Shown here piece after piece: positions 43,483-60,531 of a stretch of 64,000 bases of DNA. Every line of letters starts with the position of its first letter. Position 1 is the stretch's first letter. This DNA comes from a virus, in the IMG/VR virus record IMGVR_UViG_3300032893_000005, positions 32,001 to 96,000 of that record, one strand, 5' to 3'. A program made the position numbers and the translations under genes. The notes under the pieces were generated by a model that was not told the DNA's origin, did not search any database, and saw only the letters and a list, made by a program, of their open reading frames with translations.

Positions 43483-43660
43483 CGTCTGGGACTTCTTGAC
43501 TAAGCTCTTGGATGCGATCACGACTGCTGGCGGAGCTATCCTGGGTACCATTGCCATGTTCTTAGTTGTCCTACTGTTCACACCGATCGGATGGATGGGC
43601 ATCATGATCATGGGCGTCCTGTACATGTTGTTCACGGGTGATCGTGGAACGTATCCATGA
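43463..43660 (+). CDS. small membrane protein
   Basis: Two TM segments; GGAGG RBS. Confidence 0.6.
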   Translation: MSRRQTNVWDFLTKLLDAITTAGGAILGTIAMFLVVLLFTPIGWMGIMIMGVLYMLFTGDRGTYP

Positions 43661-44220
43661 GCAAAGATCTACTGGACAAGCTCCAGGAAGTCATGGAAGA
43701 GCTGTTCGTTCTCTGCGTCCAGTCGGGCGTCAGCGCTCCCGATCCAGTGCTTTACATGCCACGCCGGACAGTAGCGGAGCTGTACAAGTCAAGGCAGAGT
43801 AAGCAGAGCAGCATGCGACAGTTCGAGATGTTCAGCCAGCAGCCCATAGGAGATAGGGATACCCACTTCGACATGGAACTGAACTACGGCAGCCTTGGAT
43901 CTTGCAAGCTACGCATGTTGGAAGAGTGGAACTCGATCAAGCGCAATGATGCATGGGACCTCTTGGCCGTAACAAGCCAGTCCGTATCCTTTCTCCTATC
44001 GATGAAGGAGGCTATGAGGGCTCCTGCTGGCTTGCAAAGGATGGTTAACCCCGCTATCATAGACTACAAGGTTGAAGAGATCGTAAAGCAGTTTAAACGA
44101 ATCAAAGAAAGTATGGCAAATGATGAACAAGCTTATCCTGGTATTCAGCAGTATCCTGATTTCAGCAATGGCATCGGCGAAGGTGGTAGAGCTTTCGACC
44201 CCGGAGCAGCTCAAGACTGA
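43657..44220 (+). CDS. hypothetical protein; N-half resembles an HK97-fold capsid A-domain segment
   Basis: Helix-PDPVLYMPRRTVAEL-...-YGSLG pattern. Confidence 0.4.
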   Translation: MSKDLLDKLQEVMEELFVLCVQSGVSAPDPVLYMPRRTVAELYKSRQSKQSSMRQFEMFSQQPIGDRDTHFDMELNYGSLGSCKLRMLEEWNSIKRNDAWDLLAVTSQSVSFLLSMKEAMRAPAGLQRMVNPAIIDYKVEEIVKQFKRIKESMANDEQAYPGIQQYPDFSNGIGEGGRAFDPGAAQD

Positions 44221-44527
44221 GCTTGCGAAGCCTGGACCTGGCATCGTCCTCCTCTACTCCGCACCGTGGTGTCCCGGATGTCAGTTGTTTCATCCGGTCT
44301 ACGAGAAGTTGTCTGAGAAGATGAAGCCGATCCGCTTCTACGACATCAACATAGACGTAACTGCTCCACTCAAGGAGCATGAAGGTATGGTGCCTTACAT
44401 CCCGACCGCCTTCGTCGGCCACAGCGAAGATCAGCTCCGCAACAGACCGTGCAGGATCTTGAACGATGACCGAGACTTCGACACTGTGAGAGAAGAGATC
44501 GAAGAGTGTCTGAGAAGTACTAAGTAG
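44120..44527 (+). CDS. exported thioredoxin
   Basis: Signal peptide; APWCPGC; IPT cis-Pro motif. Confidence 0.85.
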   Translation: MMNKLILVFSSILISAMASAKVVELSTPEQLKTELAKPGPGIVLLYSAPWCPGCQLFHPVYEKLSEKMKPIRFYDINIDVTAPLKEHEGMVPYIPTAFVGHSEDQLRNRPCRILNDDRDFDTVREEIEECLRSTK

Positions 44528-44535
44528 GAGGAGAC

Positions 44536-44826
44536 ATGGAAGCAGGAAAGATGGTTGGTTACAAGTTCTCGTTCGGCACTAAGAACGGCGTAATCACCAC
44601 GTCGGTAGACGAGCTTCGCAAGACTCTGTCGCAGTCACCGTACTTCGACAGCGTGGCCATGCGCCCAAACGCGTACGTGGGTGGGTACGACTCGCTGGAA
44701 GTCACCATGACCACGACGCATAACTCTCTCATCGAAGTCATCAACCTGCTCGACGAAGTCAAGGCGATGCTGTCCCTGGCCGACAAGGACTTACTGAGCT
44801 ACTCTGCCTTCATAATGGAGGAGTGA
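44536..44826 (+). CDS. hypothetical protein
   Basis: AGGAGG RBS. Confidence 0.6.
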   Translation: MEAGKMVGYKFSFGTKNGVITTSVDELRKTLSQSPYFDSVAMRPNAYVGGYDSLEVTMTTTHNSLIEVINLLDEVKAMLSLADKDLLSYSAFIMEE

Positions 44827-45248
44827 TGCCTAACTCGATCACCGTTCATACTTCTAAAAGCCCTATCGACCCCTTAGCAGATGGAGTGAAGCTAGACGTC
44901 CTGGTCGCGACACACTTCATGGGCGAAGAAGTCTACGAGGAGCGCTGGGGAAAGCAGAAGCAGTACGGCGCCTTCAGCCTGGGGAAGCCTGACTACTACG
45001 ACAGCGCTGGCGAGATGATCCTGTTCAACCCGCTCCCCTCGTACTCGTACGACATGGCCGATGCGTGGAAGGTCGTCGAGAAGCTGCACGAAGTATCTGG
45101 CGTCTGCGGGTTCACTCTTATGTTCGACGACGACCAGTGGATCTGTAAGCTGGGATGGTCCAACGAAGGCGAAGCGTGTAACGGCATGGGAGTTGCCGAC
45201 ACTGCTCCACTGGCGATCTGCAGAGCAGCACTAGACGCGGTGAAGTGA
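44823..45248 (+). CDS. phage ABA-sandwich (BC1872-like) domain protein
   Basis: LDVLVA..., YSYDMADAWKVVEKL and TAPLAICRAAL. Confidence 0.75.
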   Translation: MMPNSITVHTSKSPIDPLADGVKLDVLVATHFMGEEVYEERWGKQKQYGAFSLGKPDYYDSAGEMILFNPLPSYSYDMADAWKVVEKLHEVSGVCGFTLMFDDDQWICKLGWSNEGEACNGMGVADTAPLAICRAALDAVK

Positions 45249-47329
45249 TGAAGAGGCTTGAGGGCGAGGTCAGGATAGAGGATGGACGCCTCTTGGTTGA
45301 CGCAGAGCCCCACGTCATGTCCAGACTTCGGCCAATCTTCGACAACGCGACCAACTGGTCCAACCGGGGCAAGTACACCCATCGTCCGATCACGTTCCCG
45401 TTCAACATGACTTCGGCCAAGGACATCCTCTGGATCATGCAGAGGTACAACCTGGCCTGCGATCCCCTGACAGCAAGCAAGATCCAAGAGAAGTCTGACG
45501 AGTATGACCGAGTACTCGAGTCTGTGGTCAACGCGGACAAGGATACGACGTACCGCGTTAGTCCAGAAGCCCTTCAGCTCGCTTTAAGCCTCAGAACCCA
45601 CCAAGTTACCTTCAAGAACGCCATCTGGCAGCTCAAGCGCATGCTCCTGTCCGACAAGATGGGCCTCGGGAAAACCCCGTCCGGCATCTCGATGCTTCAG
45701 GAGCCTGAGTCGCGCCCGGCGCTGATCGTGGTACCGCCGCACCTGTGCTCTCAGTGGGAGCGCGAGGTAAATCGGTTCCTACCCGGCGCCAGCACACACG
45801 TCATACGAGGCTTCAAGAACTACGAGCTGCCCCAAGTCGACGTCTTGATCACAGGATACAACCGGCTCCAGCCGTGGCAGGACACACTCCTGGCCGACAA
45901 GAGTCACTTCAAGACCCTGATAGGCGACGAGATCCAGGAACTGAGGCACACCGGCACCGGAAAGCGCGAGATCTTTCGCATCTTGTCAGAGCGCGTCAAG
46001 TTCTGCGCGGGTCTGAGCGGTACGCCGATCTACAACCACGGTGACGAGATCTGGAGTGTCCTGGACGCCATATCCCCTGAGTGCCTAGGAAGCCGCGACG
46101 AGTTCGTGGAAGAGTGGTGCGGCTGGTCCGGCGTAGTCCGGGAGCCTAGCGTCCTCAACCACTACCTGAAGACACGCGGTCTGATGATGCGGAGGACCCC
46201 GGAAGAAGTTGGGCTCCACTTCGGAGAAGCCTCGAAGCACGTCTACACGCTCGACGCCGACATGAAGCAGCTCGAAGCCGTCCAGAACGTCATGAAGATG
46301 CTGGCCTTGAGCGTGCTGAATGGCAACGTGAACGAGCAGAGCGAGTCTTCCCGCGAGTTCGACTGGAAGCTCCGTCACGCCACTGGAGTGGCTAAGGCTA
46401 GGCCTGTGGCCGAGTTCGTAAAGATGATCTGCGACCAGGGCGACAAGGTTCTCCTGGCCGGTTGGCACCGCGACGTCTACGACATCTGGATGAAGGAGCT
46501 GAAGGCCTACAATCCCGTCATGTACACCGGCACCGAGTCTCCCAAGGAGAAGGACAAGGCCGTCAAGGAGTTCGTCGAGGGGAATGCGAAGGTGTTCATC
46601 ATCAGTCTCAGGTCTGGATCTGGCCTCGATGGGCTTCAGAGAGCCTGCGCGACCGCTGTGTTCGGCGAGCTTGACTGGAGCCCACACGTAATGGATCAAG
46701 TCGTAGCCCGCCTTGACCGCGACGGCCAGACGAAGCACGTCCAGGCGTTCTACCTGACGATCGCCGACGGAGCCGACCCGTTCATGATCGAACTCGTAGC
46801 GAAGAAGCGTGACCAGCACGATGGCGTAGTGGAAGGCAAAGACAGCGCCGGTGAGATCTTGGCGTTCGACAGCGGCGGCAAGGAGCGAATCCGAGAGCTT
46901 GCGAAGTCGTACCTCAAGTCGATCGGCGAAGAGGCAGTAGAAGCTATCCAGGAAGTTGGCCTTCAGGCCGACGTAGCCAATGCCCTGAGGTCAGTCCGAG
47001 TCCCGGTAAACACCGAGGAAGAGATGCAGGCTGCACTCCACGACGTTCTTCCTAAGGTTCTGCCGCAAGACGTCAAGATCGAGCGCGAGGTCAAGATCTC
47101 GAAGCGAAGCCGCCTAGACTTCATGGTCACTCGCGGCGAAGAGCGCGTCGCTATCGAGTGTAAGATCGCATCGACCAAGCGGGCCGAGGTCTACCGGCAA
47201 GTTCGCAAGTACGTGGAAGAAGGCAAGGTCACGTCCGTGGTCTTGTTCGCGCCTTGGTTCGGGATACCAACTTTTAAGGTTGACGAGGTGGTCGTGACTG
47301 TGGTTGACACAGCGGCGGCGTCGCTGTAA
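45245..47329 (+). CDS. SNF2-family helicase fused to a C-terminal PD-(D/E)XK nuclease-like domain
   Basis: DKMGLGKT, DEIQ, SGTP, GLDGLQ and QVVARLDRDGQ; C-terminal E..RLDF..IECK..QVRKY. Confidence 0.88.
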   Translation: MMKRLEGEVRIEDGRLLVDAEPHVMSRLRPIFDNATNWSNRGKYTHRPITFPFNMTSAKDILWIMQRYNLACDPLTASKIQEKSDEYDRVLESVVNADKDTTYRVSPEALQLALSLRTHQVTFKNAIWQLKRMLLSDKMGLGKTPSGISMLQEPESRPALIVVPPHLCSQWEREVNRFLPGASTHVIRGFKNYELPQVDVLITGYNRLQPWQDTLLADKSHFKTLIGDEIQELRHTGTGKREIFRILSERVKFCAGLSGTPIYNHGDEIWSVLDAISPECLGSRDEFVEEWCGWSGVVREPSVLNHYLKTRGLMMRRTPEEVGLHFGEASKHVYTLDADMKQLEAVQNVMKMLALSVLNGNVNEQSESSREFDWKLRHATGVAKARPVAEFVKMICDQGDKVLLAGWHRDVYDIWMKELKAYNPVMYTGTESPKEKDKAVKEFVEGNAKVFIISLRSGSGLDGLQRACATAVFGELDWSPHVMDQVVARLDRDGQTKHVQAFYLTIADGADPFMIELVAKKRDQHDGVVEGKDSAGEILAFDSGGKERIRELAKSYLKSIGEEAVEAIQEVGLQADVANALRSVRVPVNTEEEMQAALHDVLPKVLPQDVKIEREVKISKRSRLDFMVTRGEERVAIECKIASTKRAEVYRQVRKYVEEGKVTSVVLFAPWFGIPTFKVDEVVVTVVDTAAASL

Positions 47330-47338
47330 AATCTTCTC

Positions 47339-47827
47339 ATGTATTGGCAAACTCACGGTCACTGTAAAAACTATCACCGCTCAAGAACGTACAACGTCTG
47401 GCACAAGATGCGCCAGCGGTGCTTCAATCCCAAAGATCCCAAGTATCCTAACTATGGCGGCAGAGGTATAACTATTGACCCAAGATGGATGGTATTTGAA
47501 ACTTTCTTAGAAGATATGGGAGTGTGCCCCGACAAACACTCTATAGATCGTATCGATAATAATGCCAACTACTGTAAGGCAAACTGCAAGTGGTCCACTA
47601 ACAAAGAACAGTGCAATAATAGAAGATCTTGTAGATACCTAGAGTTCAACGGTAAGAAGATGACTCACCAACAATGGGCAGAATCTTTAGGTTTTAAGGA
47701 AGGATCTGCCATCGCGTTTAGGTTAAAATCTGGATGGACTATAGAAGAAGCACTCACAACTCGCAAAGGCCAATCGAGAACGTCTCGTTCTGAGACTTGC
47801 GTTGACACAATGTCACAGGCCCTGTAA
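47339..47827 (+). mobile_element. HNH-like homing endonuclease
   Basis: MRQRCFNP..YGGRGI..SIDRIDNNANYCKANCKW; AT-rich. Confidence 0.85.
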
Positions 47828-47830
47828 TCT
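47802..47830 (+). promoter_or_regulatory. sigma70-like promoter opening the small-ORF region
   Basis: TTGACA-17 nt-TAATCT. Confidence 0.55.
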
Positions 47831-47858
47831 AACCTTGAAACTTTCTTGGAGGGAAGGC

Positions 47859-48161
47859 ATGAAGAAGGGGCAAGGTAACGACTTAGTCGGATGGACGGCC
47901 CGTGCGCTGCAAGACGTCAAGACGCACAACGGGTTCACGATCGTCAAAGACTCTAAGGTGAAGGTCGTAGACTATCTACACCTCGACAAGCACTACTGTG
48001 TCACCTTGATCGACTCGATCTGGGCGTCGTCGCTCATAGTGAGCGAGAACGACATGATGCTCTGCTTCGACTTTATCTCGTCCGGCCAGCCCGAACGAGT
48101 TCCTGTTCCAAAGTCACTAGCGAAGTGGTATAACGAAACCAAGAAGTACACGGGGTATTAA
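47859..48161 (+). CDS. hypothetical protein
   Basis: GGAGG RBS. Confidence 0.55.
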   Translation: MKKGQGNDLVGWTARALQDVKTHNGFTIVKDSKVKVVDYLHLDKHYCVTLIDSIWASSLIVSENDMMLCFDFISSGQPERVPVPKSLAKWYNETKKYTGY

Positions 48162-48162
48162 G

Positions 48163-48414
48163 ATGAAGAAACCGCAGCTATGGTTAGAAGAACAGCGATG
48201 GGGCGAGAAGGATGGTGTCCATACCATGCTGCGCATCTTTTATCCTGACGGATCGTCCGAGTACCTGAACTTAAACAAGTACTATGATAACGGCAACGTG
48301 CTATTCAACACAACTGGTGACTGGGAGCGGTCCCACGGTAACGACTGGAGCCCCGATGACTACGATGGTCAGTACGGCAACGATACTGAAGCACACTTCC
48401 TGGGGTACCTGTGA
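48163..48414 (+). CDS. hypothetical protein
   Basis: Collinear ORF. Confidence 0.55.
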   Translation: MKKPQLWLEEQRWGEKDGVHTMLRIFYPDGSSEYLNLNKYYDNGNVLFNTTGDWERSHGNDWSPDDYDGQYGNDTEAHFLGYL

Positions 48415-48791
48415 AGTACGTCGCAGTCGTCGTGAACATCAACGGCTCGATAGACTCACAAGGTGAGGTCATCATGGGAGACGTGACGTTTCCAGATCAT
48501 CCGGTGCAGTTCTTCCGTGACAGTGACATAGGTAAGAGTATCAGTGAAGGTGAACCTTTAGGCGTAGCCAAGCTTAGGAAGGAAGGTAACCAAGTCTTCG
48601 CGGACATCGATACCTTCAGTCCCATAGACATATCCGGCATGTACGCGGTTCCCACAGGATCGATAAAGACCAGGAGAGGGAACGTGATCACGGAGTGCAG
48701 CATATCAGGCATCATGTTGACCCCTTCCCCTGCCGACAAAAATCTGTTACCACTTACTAAAGTGGAGGATGACGATGGGCAAGCACGTTAG
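48411..48791 (+). CDS. degenerate prohead protease (HK97/S78-like) paralog
   Basis: IDSQGEVI...RRGNVITECSISGIMLTPSPADK; catalytic His/Ser motifs not evident. Confidence 0.6.
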   Translation: MKYVAVVVNINGSIDSQGEVIMGDVTFPDHPVQFFRDSDIGKSISEGEPLGVAKLRKEGNQVFADIDTFSPIDISGMYAVPTGSIKTRRGNVITECSISGIMLTPSPADKNLLPLTKVEDDDGQAR

Positions 48792-49113
48792 CTTCGGAAG
48801 CTCGAGTAGTGGCATCAAGGAACACGTCAAGGGACTCGTGACCTTCGAGTACTACCGCGACGGGAACCTGTTCTACAAGACAGAGTCAGGCCTTCGCTTC
48901 CCGGTGCCGGTCTCAGACATCGGCAACGCCACGTTCATGGCCTCAGACCGCGCCATGCTGTTCATGCGTTGGATCAGGCAGCACCTCGAGATCAACAAAG
49001 GCGTAGCAGTCATGGTCGACGTATCTATAAAGCCCAACGAGGCCAAGCTGGTCGATCCATCGAACCCGGCAAACTCTGTCCTCATCAAGAACATAGGAGA
49101 CGGCAATGGTTAG
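48769..49113 (+). CDS. conserved phage hypothetical protein
   Basis: FEYYRDGNLFY..FPVPVSDIGNATF..AMLFMRWIR. Confidence 0.65.
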   Translation: MTMGKHVSFGSSSSGIKEHVKGLVTFEYYRDGNLFYKTESGLRFPVPVSDIGNATFMASDRAMLFMRWIRQHLEINKGVAVMVDVSIKPNEAKLVDPSNPANSVLIKNIGDGNG

Positions 49114-49681
49114 GATAGGCAGGCCTCCTCACGTTTACCTGATCGAAGGCCATAATGACATGAGCCACTTTACTCCGAGCGAGTACGTGTGCAACGAGTT
49201 CGTATACGTCACCGACGAACTTTACATGAAGCTCCTCCAGTTCACGGACCCGACGCTCATCGAGGGAACGCAGACCGAGAAGGAAGAGATGAAGTCTGCC
49301 TTGGAGTCATCAGCGGTTAAGTCTCTCGGACCAGGTGAAAGTTCTGCTGATAACTTGATGACTTTCTTGTCCGGCACGTCGCTTGCGCAGCGCATCAAGC
49401 GCGCGATAGACATGAACCCTGGCAAGAGCATGCTCTGGCAGTTCAACGGACTTGGTCCGAACATGAAGGATCAGTACCGTCACGTAGTCGCTATGGGAGA
49501 CCCGAGCCTGCTGCACGTCTGGACTGACTTTGAAGCCTACGTCATCCTGCCCTTGCACCGCATGAGGGTTAAGGCACTGAACAGGATGATCCGCAGACGG
49601 CAGCAGCGTGAGATCGCAAGCTGGGAAGCGTACCTTAAAGAAGTCTACTCAAGGAGAGAAAATGAAACTGCTAACCCTTAG
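49106..49681 (+). CDS. hypothetical protein
   Basis: Collinear ORF. Confidence 0.6.
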   Translation: MVRIGRPPHVYLIEGHNDMSHFTPSEYVCNEFVYVTDELYMKLLQFTDPTLIEGTQTEKEEMKSALESSAVKSLGPGESSADNLMTFLSGTSLAQRIKRAIDMNPGKSMLWQFNGLGPNMKDQYRHVVAMGDPSLLHVWTDFEAYVILPLHRMRVKALNRMIRRRQQREIASWEAYLKEVYSRRENETANP

Positions 49682-49886
49682 CCTGATTGCCATGTCGCTG
49701 GCGGCCTGCGCGAGCAAGCCTGTCAAGCAGGAGCCGTCTGAGTACGTGATCGGATGCGCCACTGGCATGTTCATGGTAGCGAAGATGAACAACAGCGTAA
49801 CCGAGGACAACCGAGAAGGACTAACTCAGTTATTTGCTCAGATCTGCATGTCACTTGAACACAGCTACCGGGAGAGGACCAAGTGA
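49662..49886 (+). CDS. small lipoprotein
   Basis: Lipobox LAAC; two further Cys. Confidence 0.7.
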   Translation: MKLLTLSLIAMSLAACASKPVKQEPSEYVIGCATGMFMVAKMNNSVTEDNREGLTQLFAQICMSLEHSYRERTK

Positions 49887-50164
49887 GGTTCAAGAGTAAG
49901 GTCGTCCACATCGACGCGAAGCAGTGGGACGGCGACTGGCGCGTGCTGTGCGACTGGGCATCGTCCATCAGCGTAGGCAGCGGTACCGGCTTGTCGTACA
50001 ACGGTAAGAGCTTGCAGATCCACACCCTGGAAGGTACCATGTCGGTCGGCATCGGTGATTGGGTGATTTGCGGAACCGAGGGCGAGTTTTATCCGTGCAA
50101 AAATACGGTCTTTCAACGTAAATACGAACCGGCCCCTGAGCCGGAGAGGAGTGGTGCAGTATGA
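49883..50164 (+). CDS. TLEG...GDW..G..GEFYPCK family protein (PGDYG-like; candidate signal-sponge anti-defence protein)
   Basis: IHTLEGTMSVGIGDWVICGTEGEFYPCKNTVFQRKYE. Confidence 0.65.
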   Translation: MRFKSKVVHIDAKQWDGDWRVLCDWASSISVGSGTGLSYNGKSLQIHTLEGTMSVGIGDWVICGTEGEFYPCKNTVFQRKYEPAPEPERSGAV

Positions 50165-50532
50165 TTACATCGAACGGAACATTTGTACAGGTGGTGACGG
50201 CTGCAGAAGCTGCGGCTGCCTACAAAGCCAACCCGTACAACAAGATGGAGACGCTCAAGGCAGACCTCATGGACGGCATCACCCGCGCAATGCTCTGCGG
50301 TAGCCCTAGCTACTCGTACTTCGGGTACAGGAATAAGCTGGAGCAGCCTGTCATAGACTGGCTCGTCAGCCTGGGATACTTGGTGTGGCACCATAGTCCA
50401 TACGATGGCTCAGGTCGCAAGCAGTACACCTACAGCATCTACTGGGCATTCCCAGACGACGCAACGGTCGCACCGTTTGCCCCTGGCGAGCGATTCGACG
50501 AGGGCTACAGCGACGCGGAGAGTACGGTATGA
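50161..50532 (+). CDS. small hypothetical protein (L..LGY.V...W family)
   Basis: TAAEA...WLVSLGYLV...IYW. Confidence 0.6.
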   Translation: MITSNGTFVQVVTAAEAAAAYKANPYNKMETLKADLMDGITRAMLCGSPSYSYFGYRNKLEQPVIDWLVSLGYLVWHHSPYDGSGRKQYTYSIYWAFPDDATVAPFAPGERFDEGYSDAESTV

Positions 50533-50909
50533 AGAAGCTGTTTCGGTTTCAGTACGAGAAGTGCAGCGGCACTTGCTACCACCCGTCTCCAGAGTTCTTC
50601 GAGGAGCTTCGGTGCCTGGACAAGACAGTCCTGAAGCGCGTGGTGGATAAGGTAGTCGCATCGCACGACAGGGTGTGCAACGATCCAGAGATGCGATTCG
50701 GCGTAGACTACGACGAGAAGAGCAAGCACTACATCGCCAGCTTCGTTAACCACGGCAAGCTTGACTTGTTCACGTCCAGAGTGTTCATGGGAGCCGTCGA
50801 GGAGATGTGCGAGTTCATCCTGTCCGAGGTCCAAGGAGGTGCGTCTGGCGACTGCGAGTACGATCACACTACTGAAAAGTTGCACGAAGCCATCATGAGG
50901 GCCGTATGA
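50529..50909 (+). CDS. hypothetical protein
   Basis: Translationally coupled ORF. Confidence 0.55.
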   Translation: MKKLFRFQYEKCSGTCYHPSPEFFEELRCLDKTVLKRVVDKVVASHDRVCNDPEMRFGVDYDEKSKHYIASFVNHGKLDLFTSRVFMGAVEEMCEFILSEVQGGASGDCEYDHTTEKLHEAIMRAV

Positions 50910-51061
50910 TCATCTCTCAGGTAATGCGTACGGTAGCGATCTTCGTATGGATACTGCTTGGCCTACACCTGATCGCCGTCGATCGTATCGCAGCGACCTG
51001 TACGCTGATCAGCGGTACTCTGTTCATGGCCGCTTTGATATACGACGAGGCTTCATCATGA
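50906..51061 (+). CDS. small membrane protein
   Basis: Manual translation; two hydrophobic segments; coupled ATGA junctions. Confidence 0.5.
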   Translation: MIISQVMRTVAIFVWILLGLHLIAVDRIAATCTLISGTLFMAALIYDEASS

Positions 51062-51212
51062 AGAAGGAAGAACTGCAGAAGCACTTAGACTCTCTGCTAG
51101 AGAAGCGCCGCAAGATCTTGACCAGCAAGAGTGCGAAGCCGAGCGAGATCACCGACAAGTTAAACAAGGTCGCCAAGGAGATCGAGTCGACCAGAAACAA
51201 GATGGAGAAGTT

Positions 51213-51440
51213 ATGAAACTGTACGCTACCAAGTTCCGAGAGAAGGGTGACAAGGAGTATAAGACTGTCCTGATCATGGCGAAGGACTTCGACGAGTATC
51301 GCGAGAAGTTCGCAGACTTCTTGAAGGTCGGCGAGTACGACGTCGACAAGCGTACCATATCATGGGCAGGAAACTCTGTTCCGTTCATGTCCGAGGGTAG
51401 AGCTGAAGTCCTGTGCACAAACTTGGACGAAGTGAACTAA
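51213..51440 (+). CDS. hypothetical protein
   Basis: Translationally coupled ORF. Confidence 0.55.
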   Translation: MKLYATKFREKGDKEYKTVLIMAKDFDEYREKFADFLKVGEYDVDKRTISWAGNSVPFMSEGRAEVLCTNLDEVN

Positions 51441-51441
51441 C

Positions 51442-51856: not shown

Positions 51857-52462
51857 ATGAGTGACGAAGGATACGACGCAGGACCTTGGGACAAGGATCA
51901 TCCGGCTCCCACGAGCAGCCCAGCAACTGACGACATCAAGGACCAGCCGATAACGCTTAACGGCATGAAGCTGGCGGACGACGAGATCTTGGTCCTCAAC
52001 ATCCAAGGCCCAGACATCGACGCTGACATGATCCAGAACATCCGCACCTCCCTCCGCAGGGAGCTTGGCGAAGGCCGCGTGCTCATCCTTGGAAGCGACG
52101 ACGAGACGACAGTCCAGATGGCTACCATCAAGCAGCCGCCGTCCACTCTCGCGGTGAAGGTCTCAGGTGCTGAAATTTACAAGGCCGTCAAGAACTACAT
52201 CAAGTCGAACGAGGTCATCCACGCCAAGGTCAAGGAAGCCGTCGAGGAGACGATCAAGAAGGGCGCGGTGCAGAACCAGCTCGACCAGATCGTGAAGCAG
52301 CACTTCACCGGCTGGGGATCTGAGAAGAAGCTGACCGAACTCATGAAGCAGGTCATCAGCGACGACTTCAGGAAGCGCGTCGACGCCGAGATCGCAAGTG
52401 CCGTCGAGAAGGTGCTGGAGCGTGCGGTGTTCGTGATGCCTCCGAAGGACAAGCAGACGTGA
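51857..52462 (+). CDS. two-part protein; N-half resembles a portal clip segment, C-half is helical
   Basis: ILVLNIQGPDIDADMIQNIRTSLRRELGEGRVLILGSDDETTVQM. Confidence 0.45.
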   Translation: MSDEGYDAGPWDKDHPAPTSSPATDDIKDQPITLNGMKLADDEILVLNIQGPDIDADMIQNIRTSLRRELGEGRVLILGSDDETTVQMATIKQPPSTLAVKVSGAEIYKAVKNYIKSNEVIHAKVKEAVEETIKKGAVQNQLDQIVKQHFTGWGSEKKLTELMKQVISDDFRKRVDAEIASAVEKVLERAVFVMPPKDKQT

Positions 52463-52689: not shown

Positions 52690-53186
52690 TCGACTTCAAC
52701 AACTGCATCATGGAGTTCGAGGTTGGACACTACGCGATCGCCGAGGTCGGCGGTGTCCTGACGAAGTACAGGGCATACGAGATCTTAGAGCGACGTCCCG
52801 AAGAAAACCAGCTCCTACTGAGAGATGACAGTAAGGATTCTCCCGTAGAGTTCTGGGTCGACTCTCGATGTTTTCGATACTTCCCGTACAGCGCAGTCGT
52901 CTTCGCTGAGGGTGAGCATAAGACCATCGACGAGCTTCTGCACGAGATCGCCTACTCCTGGGACCACACCTACTGGCCATCGACACTACATAAGGACGAA
53001 GATGGCTTGTTCCACGTCAACAAGCTAACGATCAGCCCGTTCTGGACTGAGTACAAGGGTCAGTACGAGAAGGTCGCGCCGGGGCTCTACGAGTACCTGT
53101 GCCGCATATACGAGGTGATCGAGGAAGCCCGCGAGAAGTTCGGGAAGCCTAAGATGTTCGACGGGACGGAGGTTCAGGATGAGTAA
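52686..53186 (+). CDS. hypothetical protein
   Basis: GTG start coupled to the previous stop. Confidence 0.55.
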   Translation: MIDFNNCIMEFEVGHYAIAEVGGVLTKYRAYEILERRPEENQLLLRDDSKDSPVEFWVDSRCFRYFPYSAVVFAEGEHKTIDELLHEIAYSWDHTYWPSTLHKDEDGLFHVNKLTISPFWTEYKGQYEKVAPGLYEYLCRIYEVIEEAREKFGKPKMFDGTEVQDE

Positions 53187-53418
53187 CTTTCTGCAGATGC
53201 TTAAGAAGGCCCGCAAAGACCTCATCGACGCAGGCATGAGCTACAGGGACGTGAGCGAGCTGATCACGAACGGCCAAGTCTCCTTCGACACTTCGCTAGA
53301 CGACCAAGCAGAGCAGATGAAGTGGAAGCTGAAGAAGCTTGGACTTAAGGTTGACATAACGACGACCGAGTCGAGTCACTACAACAGAGAGTCACACAAG
53401 ATGTGGGTCCGCCTGTGA
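53179..53418 (+). CDS. small hypothetical protein
   Basis: LKKLGLKV...MWV. Confidence 0.55.
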   Translation: MSNFLQMLKKARKDLIDAGMSYRDVSELITNGQVSFDTSLDDQAEQMKWKLKKLGLKVDITTTESSHYNRESHKMWVRL

Positions 53419-54865
53419 AGACGGTTGACATCTACGAGCCTGGCGACAAGATCAGCCTCTACTCGTGCCCGCGCTGCGGTCGCAACGTCTACAACGAGGT
53501 GACAGGTGTCGACTGCTACGGAGCCAACGACATCACCACCTACATCAAGTGCCTAGGCTGTAACTTGCTCTACTGGTTCAGCTCGTTTACTGGCAGAACA
53601 AACACTAACGGGAACGATGCCGCATGAAAACTCTGAAGTACGTCTTAGGATCTGCTGCCATCCTCTACGCGATGGGGAGCCTAGTCATGCTAGTGTCTGG
53701 GCTTCAGGATAGTCAGTGGGGTCCGATGTTCTCAGACTGCAGGACTGACAAGAACCACCTTGAGCAGATCTTCTTACCGGCATACTCAGCCGGATGCTGG
53801 CTGGGGCACAAGTGAGCGCCGCAGACAAGAGGCACGCCAACCACGGAGAAGTATTCAGCGGGTCGATAATGATCCAGCAGGGCTACGCCATAGCCACGAT
53901 GAACACCTGCGCGATGTTCCAAGACCGTGGACTACACGGCTCATCAGGGGACGTCAACGGTAGAGCCATCATGATCAACAGGAGCAACTCTATAATGGGG
54001 TCGGAGGAAGCCTGGGAGAGGAACAAAGCTCTCTTGGAGTCCAACGATGACTAGGCAGCAGAAGATCAACTTGATCAAGGTCCTTCGATGTTCGCTCAAG
54101 TCAGAGAACATCACTGATTACTGTGACGGCGACGGAATAGGTTACTCCAGCACTGCAAGCTACTCCAGAGATGTAGCGGTGAAGCATAACGACGAGCTGA
54201 GGGCGTTCATAGCCATCTTGACTCGGGAAGTGAAGAAGAGTAAGATCTAGGTAGCTCTAGGAGGGACTTATGAGCGATCTGGCTGCATACCTTATCGGTT
54301 TCATCGGATTCTTGATCTTCGTCTACAAGATCATACGCGTTCTGACGCCTCAGAACGACCTCATGGACGCCATCGACACCTCCCTCCGCTTCGCTTACTG
54401 CGAACTCCGAGACGCTGAGGACGAGGTTGGCAAGCGCTTCTACATGAACCAGATTGAGACGCTCAACCGAGCACTCTCTGACGCCGCTCGAGGCGGTGTG
54501 CCGGAGGACTTCGCATGACCTGGGACAAGGCGCAACGCTTCTTCAACGGTGCGATCGTCGGCGCAGGCGCAGCCCTGATCATCGCCTTCGCTATCGGACA
54601 GGTAACTGCCTGGATGTTCTTCTGGTTCGGAACCTGGACCGGGCTAGCGATCGGAACTAAGATCGTCCGGTACTGGAGGAGTCGATGAAGACCACTAACC
54701 AGCCACTCATCCTACCAGCTCCGCGCAAGGAGAAGAACGGCGTCTTCTTTGACCCCTACAACTGGAAGTGCAACACCGACAACGGCAGGAAGAACTCCGC
54801 CGACTCACGCCGCAAGACGAAGTTCAAGCCACGAACGATCGCTGACGTCATCGCAGAGCGTGAGA

Positions 54866-55183
54866 ATGGCGAGCGATAACCACGTCCACATCTTCGTCAA
54901 GCCTTTCCAGATCTGGCCCTTCAAGAAGGTCTGGTATCGATCGCTCTGCGGTCGCGAGAAGTCAGAGTACCCGCACCTAGACCAGGCCGACCTGTCCTGC
55001 AAGCACTGCGCTGCTAGGCTCGAAGATCGCGGGGTCTGGAAGGAGTATCGCAGGTCCCAGATGAAGTTCTCAGCCCTCAAGTCTTTCAGAGAGGCTTTCG
55101 GCGAAGAGAAGTTTGAGAACAGGGCCTTCGCCCTTGAGAACCATGTCACCAGCCTCGACTACTTCACGGAGGATGAGGCATGA
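54866..55183 (+). CDS. Zn-finger protein, paralog A
   Basis: HIFVKPFQIWPFKKVWYRSLCG...CKHC. Confidence 0.6.
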   Translation: MASDNHVHIFVKPFQIWPFKKVWYRSLCGREKSEYPHLDQADLSCKHCAARLEDRGVWKEYRRSQMKFSALKSFREAFGEEKFENRAFALENHVTSLDYFTEDEA

Positions 55184-55404
55184 CTCACATCTTCCTGATG
55201 CCATTTCGCATCTACCCGTCCAAGAAGATATGGTACAAGTCCTTGTGCGGCGCTGAGAAGTCCGAGTCTCAGCAGGTCGGTTACACCAACTGTCACGTGT
55301 GCGATCACCTCAAGGAGCACAACCAAGTGCACATCATCAGGGCTCAGTTTGACCAGCACGTCACGAGTGCTCCGGTCAGCTTCAGGGTTCCGGTGATAGG
55401 ATGA
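55180..55404 (+). CDS. Zn-finger protein, paralog B
   Basis: HIFLMPFRIYPSKKIWYKSLCG...CHVC. Confidence 0.6.
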   Translation: MTHIFLMPFRIYPSKKIWYKSLCGAEKSESQQVGYTNCHVCDHLKEHNQVHIIRAQFDQHVTSAPVSFRVPVIG

Positions 55405-55868
55405 AGTGCGACTTCTGCGGAGGCACCGGCTTCCACCTGTCCCCTGACGTAGTAGAGCCGATCTTGATCCCCTGCACCAAGAAGGGCTGCAAGGCTGGCA
55501 AGAAGCCGCCGAAGCCGCCTAAGAAGACCACCACGATGAGCGGCGTCAAGTACGAGTGGGTCGTGATCGAGTGGCACGGCCCGGCGGGATGGGAAGTTGT
55601 GTCGAAGAAGACTGGCGACTTCAAAGAACACATGGCCCAAGTTGCCGAGCGTCGAAAGAACTCACCGCCTGGTCACGTTAAGTCAATCCATGTCTGCTGG
55701 CTCGACGACGTCAGGAACTGGGATGGTCCAGAAGATGTAGTTCTGTCTCTGCACGATCGTCTCGAAGTGAAACACTTCAAGAAGTTTTTGGAGCTTAAGG
55801 AAAAGTATGGTATGGAAGTACTTGAGAAGCGCCCTTACTGGCGCAAATACTTAGGACTGGAGGACTAA
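55401..55868 (+). CDS. hypothetical protein with N-terminal Zn ribbon
   Basis: CDFCGGTG...CTKKGC. Confidence 0.55.
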   Translation: MKCDFCGGTGFHLSPDVVEPILIPCTKKGCKAGKKPPKPPKKTTTMSGVKYEWVVIEWHGPAGWEVVSKKTGDFKEHMAQVAERRKNSPPGHVKSIHVCWLDDVRNWDGPEDVVLSLHDRLEVKHFKKFLELKEKYGMEVLEKRPYWRKYLGLED

Positions 55869-56315
55869 ATGGACAACTATCAGCAAGAGCGTGCTAAGGA
55901 AGCTGGTCGGATGATCGGCTTCACCGTCGGTGGAACGATCTCGTTCGTGATCCTGCTCCTGTTCTACATGATCGGCTGCCCGCAGTACAACGTGTACCAG
56001 CAGCGCATGGAAGGTGAAGCGCAGCTCGCTCACGCCGAGTACTCGAAGAAGGTTCAGGTCCAAGACGCCCTCGGTAAGCTCGAGGCTTCAAAGTCTCTGG
56101 CCGAAGTCGAGGTCACCCGCGCTGGCGGCGTGGCCCGAGCAAACAACATCATCGGCGACTCGCTCAAGAACAACGAAGCCTACCTCCGCTGGCTCTACAT
56201 CGAGGGCTTGAAGGAGAAGCAGGGCACTGAGGTCATCTACGTGCCGACGGAAGCCGGTCTTCCTATCCTCGAGGCTGGTAAGCGCGTGATGAAGCTCCAA
56301 GAGGAGAAGAAGTAA
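55869..56315 (+). CDS. membrane protein with SPFH/prohibitin-like coiled-coil C-terminus
   Basis: TM helix, then AGGVARANNIIGDSL..YLRWL..VIYVPTEAGLPILEAG. Confidence 0.7.
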   Translation: MDNYQQERAKEAGRMIGFTVGGTISFVILLLFYMIGCPQYNVYQQRMEGEAQLAHAEYSKKVQVQDALGKLEASKSLAEVEVTRAGGVARANNIIGDSLKNNEAYLRWLYIEGLKEKQGTEVIYVPTEAGLPILEAGKRVMKLQEEKK

Positions 56316-56677
56316 TGACCACCCGGAAGCAGTTTGAAGAAGCAGTCGAAGTAATCCAAGCAGCGCTCCGAGAGAAGCTGGTGATCGATGACCTCTATCA
56401 GCCCACAGGAGTGGACCAGGTTTACATCAACAGTCACACTGCTTGCCCCATAAATTACAGCAGCGACATCGACTTCGGTGGATGGACCGTCTGCGATAGC
56501 CGCAAGCTGTGCATTCGCACGGAAGCTGATGTTCTGAAAGAGCAGCTCGATCAAGCTGAGAAAGAACATAAGGAAAACTTGAGCAAAGTATCTACGGCAA
56601 ACATCCTGTCATCTCACTCTGCTACCAAGGTGGAAGAGCTGAAGATGAAGCTCGCTCAGCTCGGGAAGTATCCATGA
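56315..56677 (+). CDS. hypothetical protein
   Basis: Translationally coupled ORF. Confidence 0.55.
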   Translation: MTTRKQFEEAVEVIQAALREKLVIDDLYQPTGVDQVYINSHTACPINYSSDIDFGGWTVCDSRKLCIRTEADVLKEQLDQAEKEHKENLSKVSTANILSSHSATKVEELKMKLAQLGKYP

Positions 56678-57039
56678 ACCGTCGTGGCTTCATCCGTGGC
56701 ATGCTTGCGGCAGCAGCGCTCGCCGCTGTTCCGTTCAAGTGGGCGTTCAAGCAGACGTCCAAGGTCTTCACTGGCGCAAGGGCTAGGATCTTCATTAACG
56801 GTAAGTTAATCGCTTACACAGGCGAAGTTACCGTATCCTACGATCCCAAAGATTTATCCATGCATACTATTGGACAGTACAAACCTGAAGAAGTTAATCT
56901 AGGACCAGTTGAGTTCACTGCTACTGTCACGCGTGTAGTAAAGGGTTCTGAGTGGGACAAGCTCATGAGCCTTTCTGACGAAGACCGCGAAGCTCTCTTG
57001 AACGAGAATCCGCCAGTTCGTCGCGAGGACATCACATGA
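56674..57039 (+). CDS. twin-arginine signal fused to a tail-tube-like N-terminal segment
   Basis: MNRRGFIRGMLAAAALAA followed by KVFTGARARIFINGKLIAY...HTIGQYKPEEV...RVVKG. Confidence 0.6.
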   Translation: MNRRGFIRGMLAAAALAAVPFKWAFKQTSKVFTGARARIFINGKLIAYTGEVTVSYDPKDLSMHTIGQYKPEEVNLGPVEFTATVTRVVKGSEWDKLMSLSDEDREALLNENPPVRREDIT

Positions 57040-57486
57040 GTCAGCATGACCTTGGCATCATATACGAGAACGAAGTCGCAACTGTGCAAGAGTTCGAGAT
57101 CGAGAACAAGCCGTACGGCTGCCACTCTGAGTACGTCGTCAAGCACAAGACCTTGCCGTGCGTTCCTAAGTGGTTCAACGAGCAAGACGGTTGGGACGCT
57201 CGCAAGAAGGCGATAGCCTACTGCGACAACTACGATAGGCAGATGGTCATATGAAGAAGCCTAAGATCTTAGTCGGATTCTTCAACCAGGCTGGAGGCTT
57301 CACGAAGGGAAGCGTAACGGCTTCGTCCATGACTGACGTCATCATAGAGAAGTGGGCTTACGACAAGCTCGTCGTTGGCCTCAGAGAGCTTCACAAGGAG
57401 CTTATCCTCTCTCCAGACGACGGTATCCGCCCGATAGTAGTTGCCAAGGTAGTGAAGACTCTGCTTGAGGAAGTTGGGGAGAAGCC

Positions 57487-57816
57487 GTGACTAACGGAAG
57501 CTGGATCGGCGTAGACCTTGACGGGACGCTCGCCCACTACGATGGCTGGAAGGGTCCTGAGCATATCGGTGAACCTGTTCCTATAATGATGGCCCGCGTT
57601 AAAACTTGGCTTGCTCAAGGCCGTCGTGTTAAGATCATGACAGCTCGAGCTAGTGATCCCGCACAGGTCGTCCACGTCAAAAAGTGGCTGGTCAAGCATG
57701 TCGGGATCGAGCTTGAGGTTACGAACGTAAAGGACTTCCAGATGGTTGAGCTTTGGGACGATCGGGCAGTGCAAGTGATCCCGAACACAGGCCGAAGAGT
57801 GGACGGTATGCCATGA
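57487..57816 (+). CDS. HAD-family (PNK-phosphatase-like) protein
   Basis: VDLDGTL, MTAR, TNVK and WDDRA. Confidence 0.8.
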   Translation: MTNGSWIGVDLDGTLAHYDGWKGPEHIGEPVPIMMARVKTWLAQGRRVKIMTARASDPAQVVHVKKWLVKHVGIELEVTNVKDFQMVELWDDRAVQVIPNTGRRVDGMP

Positions 57817-58167
57817 ACACGATCGACATCGTGAGCATGCACGTAGAAGTCCTCGAGATCGCCGAGCAGGTAAGGAATGCTCCTGCTGGCGTTAGCCTCG
57901 ACCTACTTGATGCCCGCCTAGAGGCCATGAAGAGAAAGCTCCTGGCTGACATAGACGAGCGCTTAGAAGAGATTGCGCGAGAGGAGATGGGCTGATGGAG
58001 ACCTACACGACTGAGCCGTTACAGATCCCAGACAACGCCATGAGGCACCTAAGGACGATGTACCCCGGCCACTTCGACGATCAGGAGATCGTTGAGAAGT
58101 TTGTGACTGAGTGCATAATGAAGTTGCTCGATCCCCAGGAAGAGATCAACAAGTTGGAGGAAACCCC

Positions 58168-58353
58168 GTGAAGTACCTTATCCTTGCCCTTGTCCTGATG
58201 GCTGGATGCTCGAAGGGGCCGGACCCGATCGAAGTCTGCCGCGACTACTGCACTGGTTACCTTGACACCATAGTAAGGATCGGGACCGAGCGCAGCGACA
58301 ACCTTTACCACTGCCGCTGCAGCAACAGCGGGAAGAGGAACGGCGATGAGTAA
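58168..58353 (+). CDS. small Cys-rich lipoprotein
   Basis: GTG start after GGAGG; lipobox MAGC; CRDYC...CRC. Confidence 0.6.
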   Translation: MKYLILALVLMAGCSKGPDPIEVCRDYCTGYLDTIVRIGTERSDNLYHCRCSNSGKRNGDE

Positions 58354-58843
58354 GGTTAAGATGACCGTAGCCAAGCTGAAGACGATCAAGGAGATGCGGG
58401 ACCTAGCCCTCAAGCGCTTCAACAAGCTGGACGCGCAGCTCCGTAAGGCCTGCACGCATCCCAAGCGCATGTGCTACACTACCGAGAGCTACCATACCGA
58501 TACCCTTGGGAACAACGGATACGGTGAGTACCAAGACCACTGCGGCTGCTGCGAAGCTTATCTTGGAGAGTCTTATAGAGCTGACGACCGTCGCTACGGT
58601 GGTACCATGAACGAGCCAAACTACGAACTGAGAGAGGACTAACGTGAGGTACCTGGTCAAGATAACCTTGCCTGACGGCGAGCAGGTCGAAGGTCAAGTA
58701 GTCCATCCCGACGGCCCGGACGGGCCAAAGCCTAAGGATCTTCGGCAGGCTCGCGAGATCGCTAAGAACATGCAGTGGCTGGACCAGAATGACGGTGAGT
58801 CTGTCAACGTCGTGAACAAGAAGAAGATAAAGGTGTGGGAAGC

Positions 58844-59167
58844 ATGAGATCGATAGACTTCGGAGAATATGGACAGGGCGCTCGCTGGGTAACGCTGGAG
58901 CAGGCTGACGAGGCCAGAGAACTTCGACTAAGCTGTCAAAGCGGCATAGGTCAAGTATTCATGCACAAGGAGTACGGCGACATCATCATAGCGTGGCCTG
59001 TGAGCTTTGACTCGCACTACCAGCCCGGCCAACCCACCAAGCACACTATCCATTACAAGATCGAGGGTGAACATTCACCTGGTTCCTACTACGCCGACAT
59101 GAGGGGTAATCCGTTCCTGTACAACTTCGAGTACCTAGGGGAGTTCGGAGACATGCATGAAGATTAA
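58844..59167 (+). CDS. hypothetical protein
   Basis: Translationally coupled ORF. Confidence 0.5.
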   Translation: MRSIDFGEYGQGARWVTLEQADEARELRLSCQSGIGQVFMHKEYGDIIIAWPVSFDSHYQPGQPTKHTIHYKIEGEHSPGSYYADMRGNPFLYNFEYLGEFGDMHED

Positions 59168-59501
59168 CGCTGGGTTCGAGCAGAAGGATAAGACGCGCAT
59201 AGTCTGGATCATTGACCAGAACCTCAACGTAGTGAGGGTTCGCGCCAGGTACAGAGCTGCGTTCTCGAGCTGGTCGTACACGTCCGTCGACGGTAAGTCA
59301 GGCGGTTCCCACCTGTTCCCGTACTATCCGACCGTCGGCATGGGACGTCGCTCCTACTACGGAGACGGCCCGCACTACACGACTCGCAGCGAAGCCGTCG
59401 AAGACCTGCGCCCCATCGTACTGAAGGTCATGCGAGAACTCAGGAAGAGCATGCGAAAGGCCTTGAACTCACAGCTCGAAGAGTTGCGGAGTAAGCTCTG
59501 A
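59157..59501 (+). CDS. hypothetical protein
   Basis: Collinear ORF. Confidence 0.55.
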   Translation: MKINAGFEQKDKTRIVWIIDQNLNVVRVRARYRAAFSSWSYTSVDGKSGGSHLFPYYPTVGMGRRSYYGDGPHYTTRSEAVEDLRPIVLKVMRELRKSMRKALNSQLEELRSKL

Positions 59502-59845
59502 TGGAGACCGTGGAGGAACTCAAGGCTGAGGTCAGTCGCTTATCCACCGAACTGCTCGAGTGGGAGACTTCCTACACGGTAAAGCGCTTCAACAAGAGCA
59601 TCGCCCAGTCGATCCAGGACCTCGTGATGACGATCGGCTATCGCCACGATCCGAAGCAGTTTAAGATCATGCTGCCCCAGACTGTCATAGACATCTTCAA
59701 CGAAGAGCGCGACGAGTTCAACGACCGCGATACGAAGGTTACCTGGGACGCAGAGACTAGATCTCTGCAGCGCTTTCCTGTTAAGATAAGGAAAAACTTC
59801 CTAGAGTACATGGGAGTCGAAGTGGAGCTGGTGCCTTATGAGTAG
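59501..59845 (+). CDS. hypothetical protein; C-part resembles an HK97-fold capsid A-domain
   Basis: IQDLVMTI...FKIMLPQTVIDIF...LEYMGVEVELVP. Confidence 0.45.
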   Translation: METVEELKAEVSRLSTELLEWETSYTVKRFNKSIAQSIQDLVMTIGYRHDPKQFKIMLPQTVIDIFNEERDEFNDRDTKVTWDAETRSLQRFPVKIRKNFLEYMGVEVELVPYE

Positions 59846-60012
59846 GGAAGATATGATCGACGACCTAATAACGGCTGACGTTAAAGAGATCGTAGACGCT
59901 GTCAAAGCAGGCAACGAGTACACGCCAGGCGACATCCGCCACATCCTCGCTTACGGTCGTGGGTACGATACCTGGACCGACGAGGAAGTCTTGAAAGAGT
60001 GGAAGGAACGGC

Positions 60013-60531
60013 ATGAGTGACGAGATGTTCTCAAACTTTGGCTCTGACCAGTCTGCGGTCCTTGACACAAGCGCTGTCCTGACTCAGGAGATCATCGAAG
60101 AGGCCGCGCAGCGTTGCCTGGACAACTTTGGCCAGTACGATCCGCCTTACATGGTCAGTCCTGAGACCTACGCCCACCTTGAGCTGCACCATAACCCCGT
60201 CTTCTACGACATCGTAGTCGAAGCGTACGTCACGCACCGTGGCCGGGTATCCAAGCGCCGGTTTAAGAACATCCTAAAGATGCGCAAGAAGCTCTTCGCA
60301 AAGATCATGATGGAGCACCTGTCCAACGAGAACGCCCATACCGTAGGCCGCCAGATCTACATGGCGATGGGAGCCAAGGCTGCGTGCGAGGAACTCGAGA
60401 AGTACCAGGACTCACCGGCCAAGGAAGCGGCACTCGCCCTGGTTACCTCCAAGGACCCTATCCGCTTCACGACAGACCACGTCCCTACCGGCTTCAAGCT
60501 CTACCGAGGCGAAGATGGTACAGACACCTAA
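60013..60531 (+). CDS. protein whose N-terminus resembles an internal segment of a large-myophage major capsid protein
   Basis: DEMFSNFGSDQSAVL...LTQEIIEEAAQRCLDNFG...MVSPETY. Confidence 0.55.
   Translation: MSDEMFSNFGSDQSAVLDTSAVLTQEIIEEAAQRCLDNFGQYDPPYMVSPETYAHLELHHNPVFYDIVVEAYVTHRGRVSKRRFKNILKMRKKLFAKIMMEHLSNENAHTVGRQIYMAMGAKAACEELEKYQDSPAKEAALALVTSKDPIRFTTDHVPTGFKLYRGEDGTDT

Follow-up and report, generated by a model that had tools for sequence, protein, structure and literature searches.

In a 64,000-nucleotide window of viral DNA (bases 32001-96000 of the 154,091-bp IMG/VR virus record IMGVR_UViG_3300032893_000005, with an estimated completeness of 94%), three small plus-strand open reading frames (ORFs) carry pieces that resemble virion-morphogenesis proteins. 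We name them by their first window positions: 48411, which has a capsid-protease fold and appears to lack the catalytic residues; 56674, which joins a probable export leader to the N-terminal half of a tail-tube domain; and 60013, which begins with a short segment resembling the major capsid protein (MCP). The source virus is a large Mx1-like myophage, and the reading that we favor, at a probability of about 0.5, is that these pieces were independently recruited as interaction mimics in the fast-evolving accessory arm of its genome. An earlier note on this DNA had listed six ORFs as truncated or inactivated copies of virion proteins and had grouped them as a candidate decoy system against host defenses; three of the six claimed resemblances hold (48411, 56674 and 60013), and these are real and above chance. 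The elements concerned are the following (positions are those of the window):

48411..48791, plus strand, stand-alone assemblin/prohead-protease beta-barrel protein of 126 aa (AlphaFold2 [AF2] model, VIA-align, Foldseek)
56674..56754, plus strand, twin-arginine (Tat)-type leader, aa 1-27 of 56674 (NRRGFIRG, a moderately hydrophobic stretch, then basic residues)
56755..56946, plus strand, tail-tube-like half domain, aa 28-91 of 56674, homologous to tube aa 4-70 of 155
60019..60153, plus strand, capsid-protein-like segment, aa 3-47 of the 172-aa ORF 60013-60531 (MCP alignments and profile)

The screen compared 44 ORFs of the region with the phage's own 216 predicted proteins by BLASTP. Besides one adjacent-paralogue pair, it returned three hits at E≤1e-3, all of them to virion proteins (60013 to the MCP, 56674 to the tail tube and a further ORF, 55180, to the portal), against a chance level of 0.08 hits per shuffled query set and 0 with reversed queries. 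Pfam and PHROG searches with the six named ORFs recovered zero structural families, save a near-threshold Tat signal and weak 'tail protein' and unknown-family matches for 56674. Profile tests were run with 64 profiles, and E-values are given with a 64-fold correction where stated. Each of the named ORFs scores best for codon usage in its annotated frame, with a coding-like signal. No head or tail operon lies in the window, as the earlier note had said; the MCP, portal, prohead protease, sheath and tube genes that serve for comparison all map outside it on the minus strand, as does the gene for the large terminase:

L002:14003-15391, minus strand, major capsid protein
L002:17064-18014, minus strand, prohead protease
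L003:1200-3281, minus strand, portal
L006:11947-14754, minus strand, sheath
L006:11462-11929, minus strand, tail tube of 155 aa, directly after the sheath gene and 55% identical to the Mx1 post-sheath gene
L004:15326-15757 (genome 111326-111757), minus strand, second tail-tube paralogue, full length (~143 aa), in the baseplate/fibre module

Pieces of a protease, a tail tube and a capsid protein

The first of the three, 48411, had been called prohead-protease-like, a call borne out by its AF2 model, by alignment of that model to solved chains and by matches in BFVD and the ESM Atlas; we are highly confident of the structural facts that follow. The AF2 model was built on the family alignment A2, which comprises 20 sequences and includes 18 of the 19 stand-alone members of the family, and it reached a predicted local distance difference test (pLDDT) score of 90 and a predicted template modelling (pTM) score of 0.81. 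When this model was compared with 48,161 solved chains using VIA-align, four capsid proteases preceded the first unrelated fold, an MCE domain (Z 4.5):

varicella-zoster virus (VZV) protease, Z 8.4, 102 aligned residues
T4 gp21, Z 7.4, 104 aligned residues
human cytomegalovirus (HCMV) protease, Z 6.1, 103 aligned residues
Kaposi's sarcoma-associated herpesvirus (KSHV) protease, Z 5.1, 80 aligned residues

Foldseek searches of BFVD gave 41 hits at E≤1e-3, in which HK97-type prohead proteases and fusions of protease to capsid protein predominated beside small uncharacterized phage proteins, and the ESM Atlas model of 48411 recovered Peptidase_S78 clusters at template modelling (TM) scores of 0.73-0.82. 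The corresponding search of the PDB yielded weak rows only, with herpesvirus proteases first (E 0.1-1), and a search of solved-structure sequences with the 48411-family profile returned chance hits only.

An exhaustive HMMER search with 48411 gave 22 hits at E≤1e-3, with 19 stand-alone members of 112-148 aa (representative search), and an orthologue is present in the relative G002. The family went unrecognized in Pfam (no hit for 48411 at E≤1, nor for any of the 20 family members at E≤0.1), PHROG had no match for 48411, a word-indexed search with it recovered only itself, and tblastn against named phages recovered none. Judged from its sequences, this is a conserved and widespread family without a name in Pfam or PHROGs, and not a decaying copy. 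Two of its members (P0007 and P0012) sit on contigs of less than 1 kb, where the genomic context is uninformative. Separately, in each of two giant proteins, P0006 (3722 aa) and P0021 (3446 aa), aa 26-68 of 48411 are partially matched 5-8 times over; Pfam found nothing in P0006 or in P0025, a further giant protein with partial matches.

Across A2, histidine reaches at most 4 of the 20 sequences in any column, and the sole conserved serine belongs to an N-terminal DS motif. Within the phage proteome, the A2 profile has its best non-self match to the prohead protease of the phage itself (aa 142-172), to which the C-terminal block RxGxxI...LTxxPADK of 48411 aligns; the order of motifs is the same in both, and the presumptive catalytic serine of the protease (in GFSVEG) aligns to Val80 of 48411. 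Because the catalytic histidine and serine are not conserved, the family is predicted not to be a Ser/His protease, and we classify 48411 as a putative pseudo-protease. The protein has the beta-barrel core in common with prohead proteases and assemblins (HK97-type, T4 gp21-type and herpesvirus; Peptidase_S78); unlike these, it stands alone outside the head module, has neither the conserved His/Ser nor the C-terminal extension and is recognized by neither Pfam nor PHROG. At 126 aa it is shorter than the matched chains of real proteases (165-230 aa), the C-terminal part being the one that is missing.

The second ORF, 56674-57039, was described in the earlier note as a tail-tube-like segment behind a Tat signal, and alignment, hhalign and near-threshold Tat models bear this out; here, too, we hold the structural facts with high confidence. 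The comparison rests on L006:11462-11929, which we take to be the tail tube because of its position after the sheath gene (the two genes together spanning genome 147462-150754, minus strand), its identity to the Mx1 post-sheath gene and a full-length profile match in which the best solved chain is 8q01_A ('Tail tube protein', E 0.024). With hhalign, 56674 matches the tube family at 96.5% (E 9e-10, 64 columns) and the second tube paralogue at 94.1% (E 1.3e-7). Beyond the half domain nothing corresponds to the C-terminal half of the tube fold; instead, a variable acidic tail extends to position 57039, and a complete ring-forming tube domain is thus not present. The second, full-length paralogue is conserved in Mx1, G001, G002 and G003 and may be a tube initiator or terminator, a suggestion that we put as a question. 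The present phage accordingly has two complete tube-family genes in its tail modules and a third, truncated and leader-bearing copy in the form of 56674.

Searches of 5.8 billion proteins recovered two homologues of this Tat-tube protein (99 and 104 aa), 51% identical. The tube profile matches all three proteins (E 2e-8 to 5e-6), and all three share, without variation, the RR motif, AVPF-W and a KVFTGARARxFINGK block. Homology to contractile-tail tubes such as L006:11462-11929 and L004:15326-15757 covers their N-terminal half, including the GARAxxxxNGK start, and in 56674 takes up aa 28-91; the ORF differs from them in its leader and acidic tail, in keeping ~65 of 155 residues, in its accessory location (genome 88674, among plus-strand accessory genes and away from the sheath/tube module) and in being known from three contigs only. 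One of the other two contigs (L012) belongs to a 144-kb phage whose baseplate J-like protein is 33% identical to that of the present phage and whose ~35 neighboring small genes include 0 shared ones; in the other (L038), the gene, encoding P0002, lies two positions after an SNF2 helicase gene whose product is 65% identical to that of the present phage. An IMG/VR scan for close relatives of 56674 found none, the complete genome of Mx1 has no Tat-tube gene, and in the complete genome of G003 the protein matches only that phage's own tube and second paralogue.

As for the leader, the Pfam model PF10518 scores 20.1 bits with 56674 and 21.9 bits with a homologue (cut-off 22.7), and TIGR01409 scores 14.6 bits with 56674 and 17.9 bits with P0002 and gives nothing with P0003 (cut-off 16.7). 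The hydropathy of the leader is 1.32, versus at least 1.95 in the neighboring membrane anchors. On these grounds export of 56674 is probable. A complex prediction that paired the mature fragment with the tail tube gave no answer (score 0.00), the fragment's own fold being uncertain, and speaks neither for nor against binding. In the literature, we found no paper linking tail-tube proteins to twin-arginine export in phages. Just upstream of the Tat-tube gene lies a cluster of small membrane proteins (window 53624-54688 and 55869-56315; hydropathy 1.95-2.25), which gives this gene an envelope context.

The third ORF, 60013, had been credited with a capsid-like segment; residues 3-47 uphold that description through their match to the MCP, and the remaining ~125 aa are unrelated. 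The same architecture bears out the claim that some of the pieces are fused to unrelated sequence, here a 45-aa capsid segment followed by an unrelated rest. We are fairly confident of the structural facts in this case. By BLASTP, aa 3-47 are 38% identical to aa 191-235 of the phage's own MCP and 44% identical to aa 193-233 of the Mx1 MCP, and they also match the 467-aa MCP frame of G001. The identities sit on columns conserved between MCPs, and the segment resembles, as judged by eye, the equivalent one of the Twort-like MCP 5lii. A profile of the phage's MCP with its Mx1, G001 and G002 orthologues hits 60013 at E 5.2e-6 (~3e-4 after correction for 64 profiles), a score reached by 0 of 8815 non-self decoys made by block-shuffling or reversing other proteins. 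We consider the capsid resemblance real but short: in relation to the HK97-fold MCPs of the SPO1/Twort-like kind (this phage's MCP; PDB 9vel, 5lii), where the segment aligns to MCP aa 191-236, only 45 of ~460 residues are matched, and the other 125 aa of 60013 are without homologues. For that remainder, the 5.8-billion-protein database held no relatives of similar length; an IMG/VR scan found no close relatives of 60013, and neither Pfam nor PHROG gave a capsid match. The AF2 model made without an alignment is unusable (pLDDT 50). Codon usage in 60013 is typical of the phage's genes.

Two observations concern capsid-protein pieces in other settings. An N-terminal MCP motif of ~35 aa (aa 5-36) reappears toward the C-terminal end of the prohead protease (aa 222-253; profile E 7e-12), and is found again inside the 1239-aa 'prohead protease' polyprotein of Mx1 and in G001; it looks like a common propeptide or capsid-targeting motif. 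In addition, an 84-aa ORF of L038 (L038:10079-10333, plus strand), two genes downstream of the one for P0002, has a start 57% identical to MCP aa 23-45 (E 2e-3); it could be another ORF of the capsid-fragment kind, this time in a relative, or the match could be due to chance.

The three confirmed genes do not co-occur among relatives. G002 has a homologue of 48411 and neither the Tat-tube nor 60013; the L012 phage (20 kb of L012 compared) and the 10.5-kb contig L038 have the Tat-tube, and 48411 and 60013 were not found in those stretches; none of these genes is present in complete Mx1 or was matched in complete G003, and homologues of 60013 occurred nowhere else among the relatives compared. 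Given these differing phyletic distributions, the pieces do not make one system, and the earlier note's grouping falls at this point. All-against-all BLASTP within Mx1, G001 and G002 likewise brought up no comparable accessory copies, the only finds being the second tube paralogue and the shared propeptide motifs. One candidate was set aside in the process: a G002 'small ORF' of 89 aa with an MCP-like start proved to be the C-terminus of that genome's protease orthologue, which is truncated where the contig stops.

Proposed recruitment as mimics and the competing explanations

Bacterial immunity detects late infection mainly through virion proteins, and when a rival phage arrives these are also what an infected cell encounters first. 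Under the recruitment reading, at least three separate events would have turned pieces of virion-morphogenesis proteins into small non-structural proteins. The claim that the pieces are too short or inactive to build a virion is supported for 48411, 56674 and 60013; in the other three named ORFs (51857, 59501 and 43657) no resemblance was found. We propose that 48411 would bind some partner of a prohead protease without cutting it, be it a partner in the phage's own head assembly, that of a rival, or a host sensor. 56674 would sit on the periplasmic side of the inner membrane, as an exported or an anchored protein, and there would most likely bind the exposed tube end or the tip of tails arriving from related phages, so preventing entry of their DNA. 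Among the roles open to 56674, this superinfection exclusion is the one that we think likeliest, although taken by itself it is a tentative proposal, which we would sooner expect to fail than to hold. In 60013, the N-terminal capsid-like segment might be a module through which the protein binds or is directed to a capsid-protein partner. A cytoplasmic role for 56674, either saturating a sensor such as DSR2 or poisoning assembly, is unlikely because the Tat leader would direct the fragment out of the cytoplasm.

For an exported fragment the closest parallels in role are two T4 proteins: Spackle, which resides in the periplasm and binds the tail-spike lysozyme (PMC7677548), and Imm, which binds the tape measure protein (10.64898/2026.03.06.709160). 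Like 56674 as we picture it, these are small phage proteins with a place in the inner membrane or periplasm and a binding partner in the incoming tail; unlike it, neither Spackle nor Imm derives from a virion protein, there is no relation in sequence or fold, and the location and activity of 56674 are those we infer for it.

Several points weigh against the recruitment of these pieces as mimics. The Tat call is near threshold, with one of the three homologues over the NCBIfam cut-off and none of the three over that of Pfam, and a clear AxA cleavage site was not found in the 56674 leader. The identity of L006:11462-11929 as the tube depends on gene order and on a weak PDB profile match (E 0.024). 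With ~65 of 155 tube residues only, folding of the half domain is uncertain. 60013 is an orphan, with no orthologue by which to gauge selection, and its match covers only 45 aa. Lastly, G001 and G002 are only 74-76% complete, and absences there are no proof.

The alternative that survives best takes the pieces as neutral by-products of illegitimate recombination in a region of fast turnover, whether translated or untranslated and under no selection for a function, with some of the short matches (the portal one, perhaps the capsid one) due to chance. The orphan status of 60013 and the marginal portal match agree with it, as does the near-complete lack of conservation of the region among relatives: four ORFs have G002 homologues, none has one in Mx1 except via the tube relationship, and G001 is without the whole stretch. 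Nevertheless, the 48411 family and the Tat-tube are kept across distant phages with clear motif constraints, in-frame codon usage is coding-like, and the 60013 match falls on MCP-conserved columns and gains significance with the profile. The 19 members and motifs of the 48411 family, a Tat-tube identity of 51% versus 33% for the baseplate protein, and the codon usage together argue that 48411 and the Tat-tube are under constraint rather than decaying; synonymous sites are saturated, as the homologues are ~50% identical or less. Neutral pseudogene decay, which the earlier note had named as an outcome contrary to its proposal, is thereby contradicted for these two families, 60013 being an orphan, and we regard the neutral explanation overall as unlikely.

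Less probable in our judgment is a dominant-negative action in the cytoplasm against the assembly of relatives that co-infect or superinfect the cell; foreign procapsids would be blocked by 48411 or take it up, and the 60013 segment would cap foreign capsid protein. Herpesvirus-type proteases work as dimers, and a dead protease subunit could consequently poison them. The copies are indeed truncated or inactive assembly proteins, and a precedent for phage-encoded assembly blockers exists in Tab, a small protein of Pseudomonas prophages that blocks tail assembly of another phage (PMC10884400). As a parallel to 56674, however, Tab differs in being cytoplasmic, in acting on assembly, in not being a virion fragment and in having a dedicated anti-Tab partner, and no such partner is evident here. 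On the explanation at large, the phage's own assembly would need protection and a partner gene for it is not evident; an exported tube fragment does not fit either, and 48411 is missing the C-terminal region (126 versus 165-230 aa in the matched chains). In known proteases that region provides dimer contacts or capsid targeting.

The decoy explanation, which descends from the earlier note, holds that early-expressed fragments occupy host defense sensors without activating them, and in its sharpest form that 48411 shields the activation loops of CD-NTases from prohead-protease cleavage. The mimicry on which it draws is real for the protease, the tube and the capsid; 48411 is without catalytic residues, as a non-activating competitor would have to be; and the genes lie in the plus-strand replication/accessory arm, apart from the minus-strand virion genes. 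Moreover, CBASS CD-NTases are reportedly switched on through prohead-protease cleavage of an exposed loop (PMC12991175). Against this, 48411, 56674 and 60013 do not co-occur, the export leader of 56674 would take it out of the cytoplasm where the sensors act, and 48411 is without the C-terminal part of real proteases and may not keep a substrate groove. We find the decoy explanation improbable.

The weakest explanation makes 60013, and perhaps 55180, virion-associated, with the segment as a procapsid address tag for a protein packaged and ejected like the T4 internal proteins: the capsid-like segment is at the extreme N-terminus of 60013 (aa 3-47), this phage group reuses a capsid N-terminal motif on the protease and on polyproteins, and the 84-aa ORF of L038 also starts like a capsid protein, but the copied segment comes from the MCP interior (aa 191-236) and not from the propeptide, and the 60013 gene is on the strand and arm of the replication and accessory genes, so that we give this idea little credence.

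Returning to recruitment as mimics, the findings fit known kinds, namely pseudo-enzymes, paralogue recruitment and exclusion proteins, and a 'decoy system' is not established. A more ambitious version would have the virion-protein copies act against both immunity and competitors, 48411 shielding the bait loops of CBASS CD-NTases, 60013 blunting capsid-sensing defenses and exported 56674 capping superinfecting tails, with at least one of them a new class of counter-defense or exclusion factor made from a piece of a virion protein; taken in full, this is unlikely. What the region does offer is two concrete candidates, a conserved dead capsid-protease-fold family that is absent from Pfam and found in many phages and a tail-tube half domain with an export leader, both of which can serve to examine whether a phage makes mimics out of fragments of its own virion. 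The 48411 family is timely in view of the recent report that CBASS senses prohead-protease cleavage (PMC12991175). If 56674 were a true exclusion protein, it would be a new kind beside the few known for contractile phages; and if the pieces are inert, the region would still record the birth of accessory genes from fragments of essential ones.

The remaining ORFs and the genomic setting

The third BLASTP hit of the screen and the named ORFs for which no resemblance was found are as follows:

55321..55401, plus strand, possible portal-like tail (aa 48-74) of ORF 55180-55404, a Cys-containing protein of 74 aa (BLASTP and portal profile)
54749..55183, plus strand, adjacent paralogue of 55180 without the portal-like part (BLASTP, 70% over a 27-aa Cys-containing motif, E 1e-11)
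51857..52462, plus strand, 201-aa ORF previously called portal-clip-like, no resemblance found
59501..59845, plus strand, 114-aa ORF previously called weakly capsid-like, no resemblance found
43657..44220, plus strand, 187-aa ORF previously called weakly capsid-like, no resemblance found

The portal-like tail of 55180 is suggestive: its aa 48-74 are 41% identical to portal aa 329-355 (E 4e-4), including a WRxPVFG motif conserved in Mx1, and the portal profile hits the ORF at E 2.6e-3, or ~0.17 after correction for 64 profiles. Together with its neighbor, 55180 possibly forms a pair of small zinc-binding proteins. In that neighbor, the long TTG-start N-terminus has poor codon usage, and the true start is probably later. 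The other three ORFs did not sustain the resemblances claimed for them. 51857 has no Pfam, PHROG, BLASTP or profile match to the portal, and its Atlas model is poor (pTM 0.27), with a portal row at TM 0.26; 59501 and 43657 have no match to the MCP by the same four approaches. A profile match of 51857 to the protein upstream of the MCP (E 0.034) was dropped, ~2 such hits being expected over 64 profiles. Among the other ORFs of the region, including an HNH endonuclease, a phrog_11227 protein and several small membrane proteins, there was no structural-family match.

Of the named phages, Myxococcus phage Mx1 comes closest (MCP identity 51%), and it has the same genome layout, the long run of small hypothetical genes included; a megablast of the region against named phages gave zero matches. 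On its plus strand, the window encodes a GroEL-like chaperonin, a DnaE-type polymerase, a DnaB-like helicase and an SNF2 helicase, and from ~43.6 kb onward a dense run of small ORFs. The genes located here are:

427-2232, plus strand, GroEL-like chaperonin, also in Mx1
10502-13951, plus strand, DnaE-type polymerase III alpha subunit, also in Mx1
45245..47329, plus strand, SNF2-family helicase (Pfam SNF2-rel_dom, E 1.6e-24), the one 65% identical to the L038 helicase
55869..56315, plus strand, membrane-anchored phrog_11227 protein, a 'protease' homologue (PHROG E 2.8e-48; hydrophobic stretch from aa 18, hydropathy 2.05), two genes upstream of the Tat-tube gene

Directly 3′ of the SNF2 helicase gene is the HNH endonuclease gene (window 47339-47827; phrog_3377, E 6e-47), which may be a mobile homing element. 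In G001, two ORFs of ~45 aa (G001:20603-20740 and G001:35408-35551) share 70-76% identity with the last 37 residues of a 396-aa protein whose gene (G001:36393-37583, minus strand) lies close to that of the tube, and look like small duplicated gene ends.

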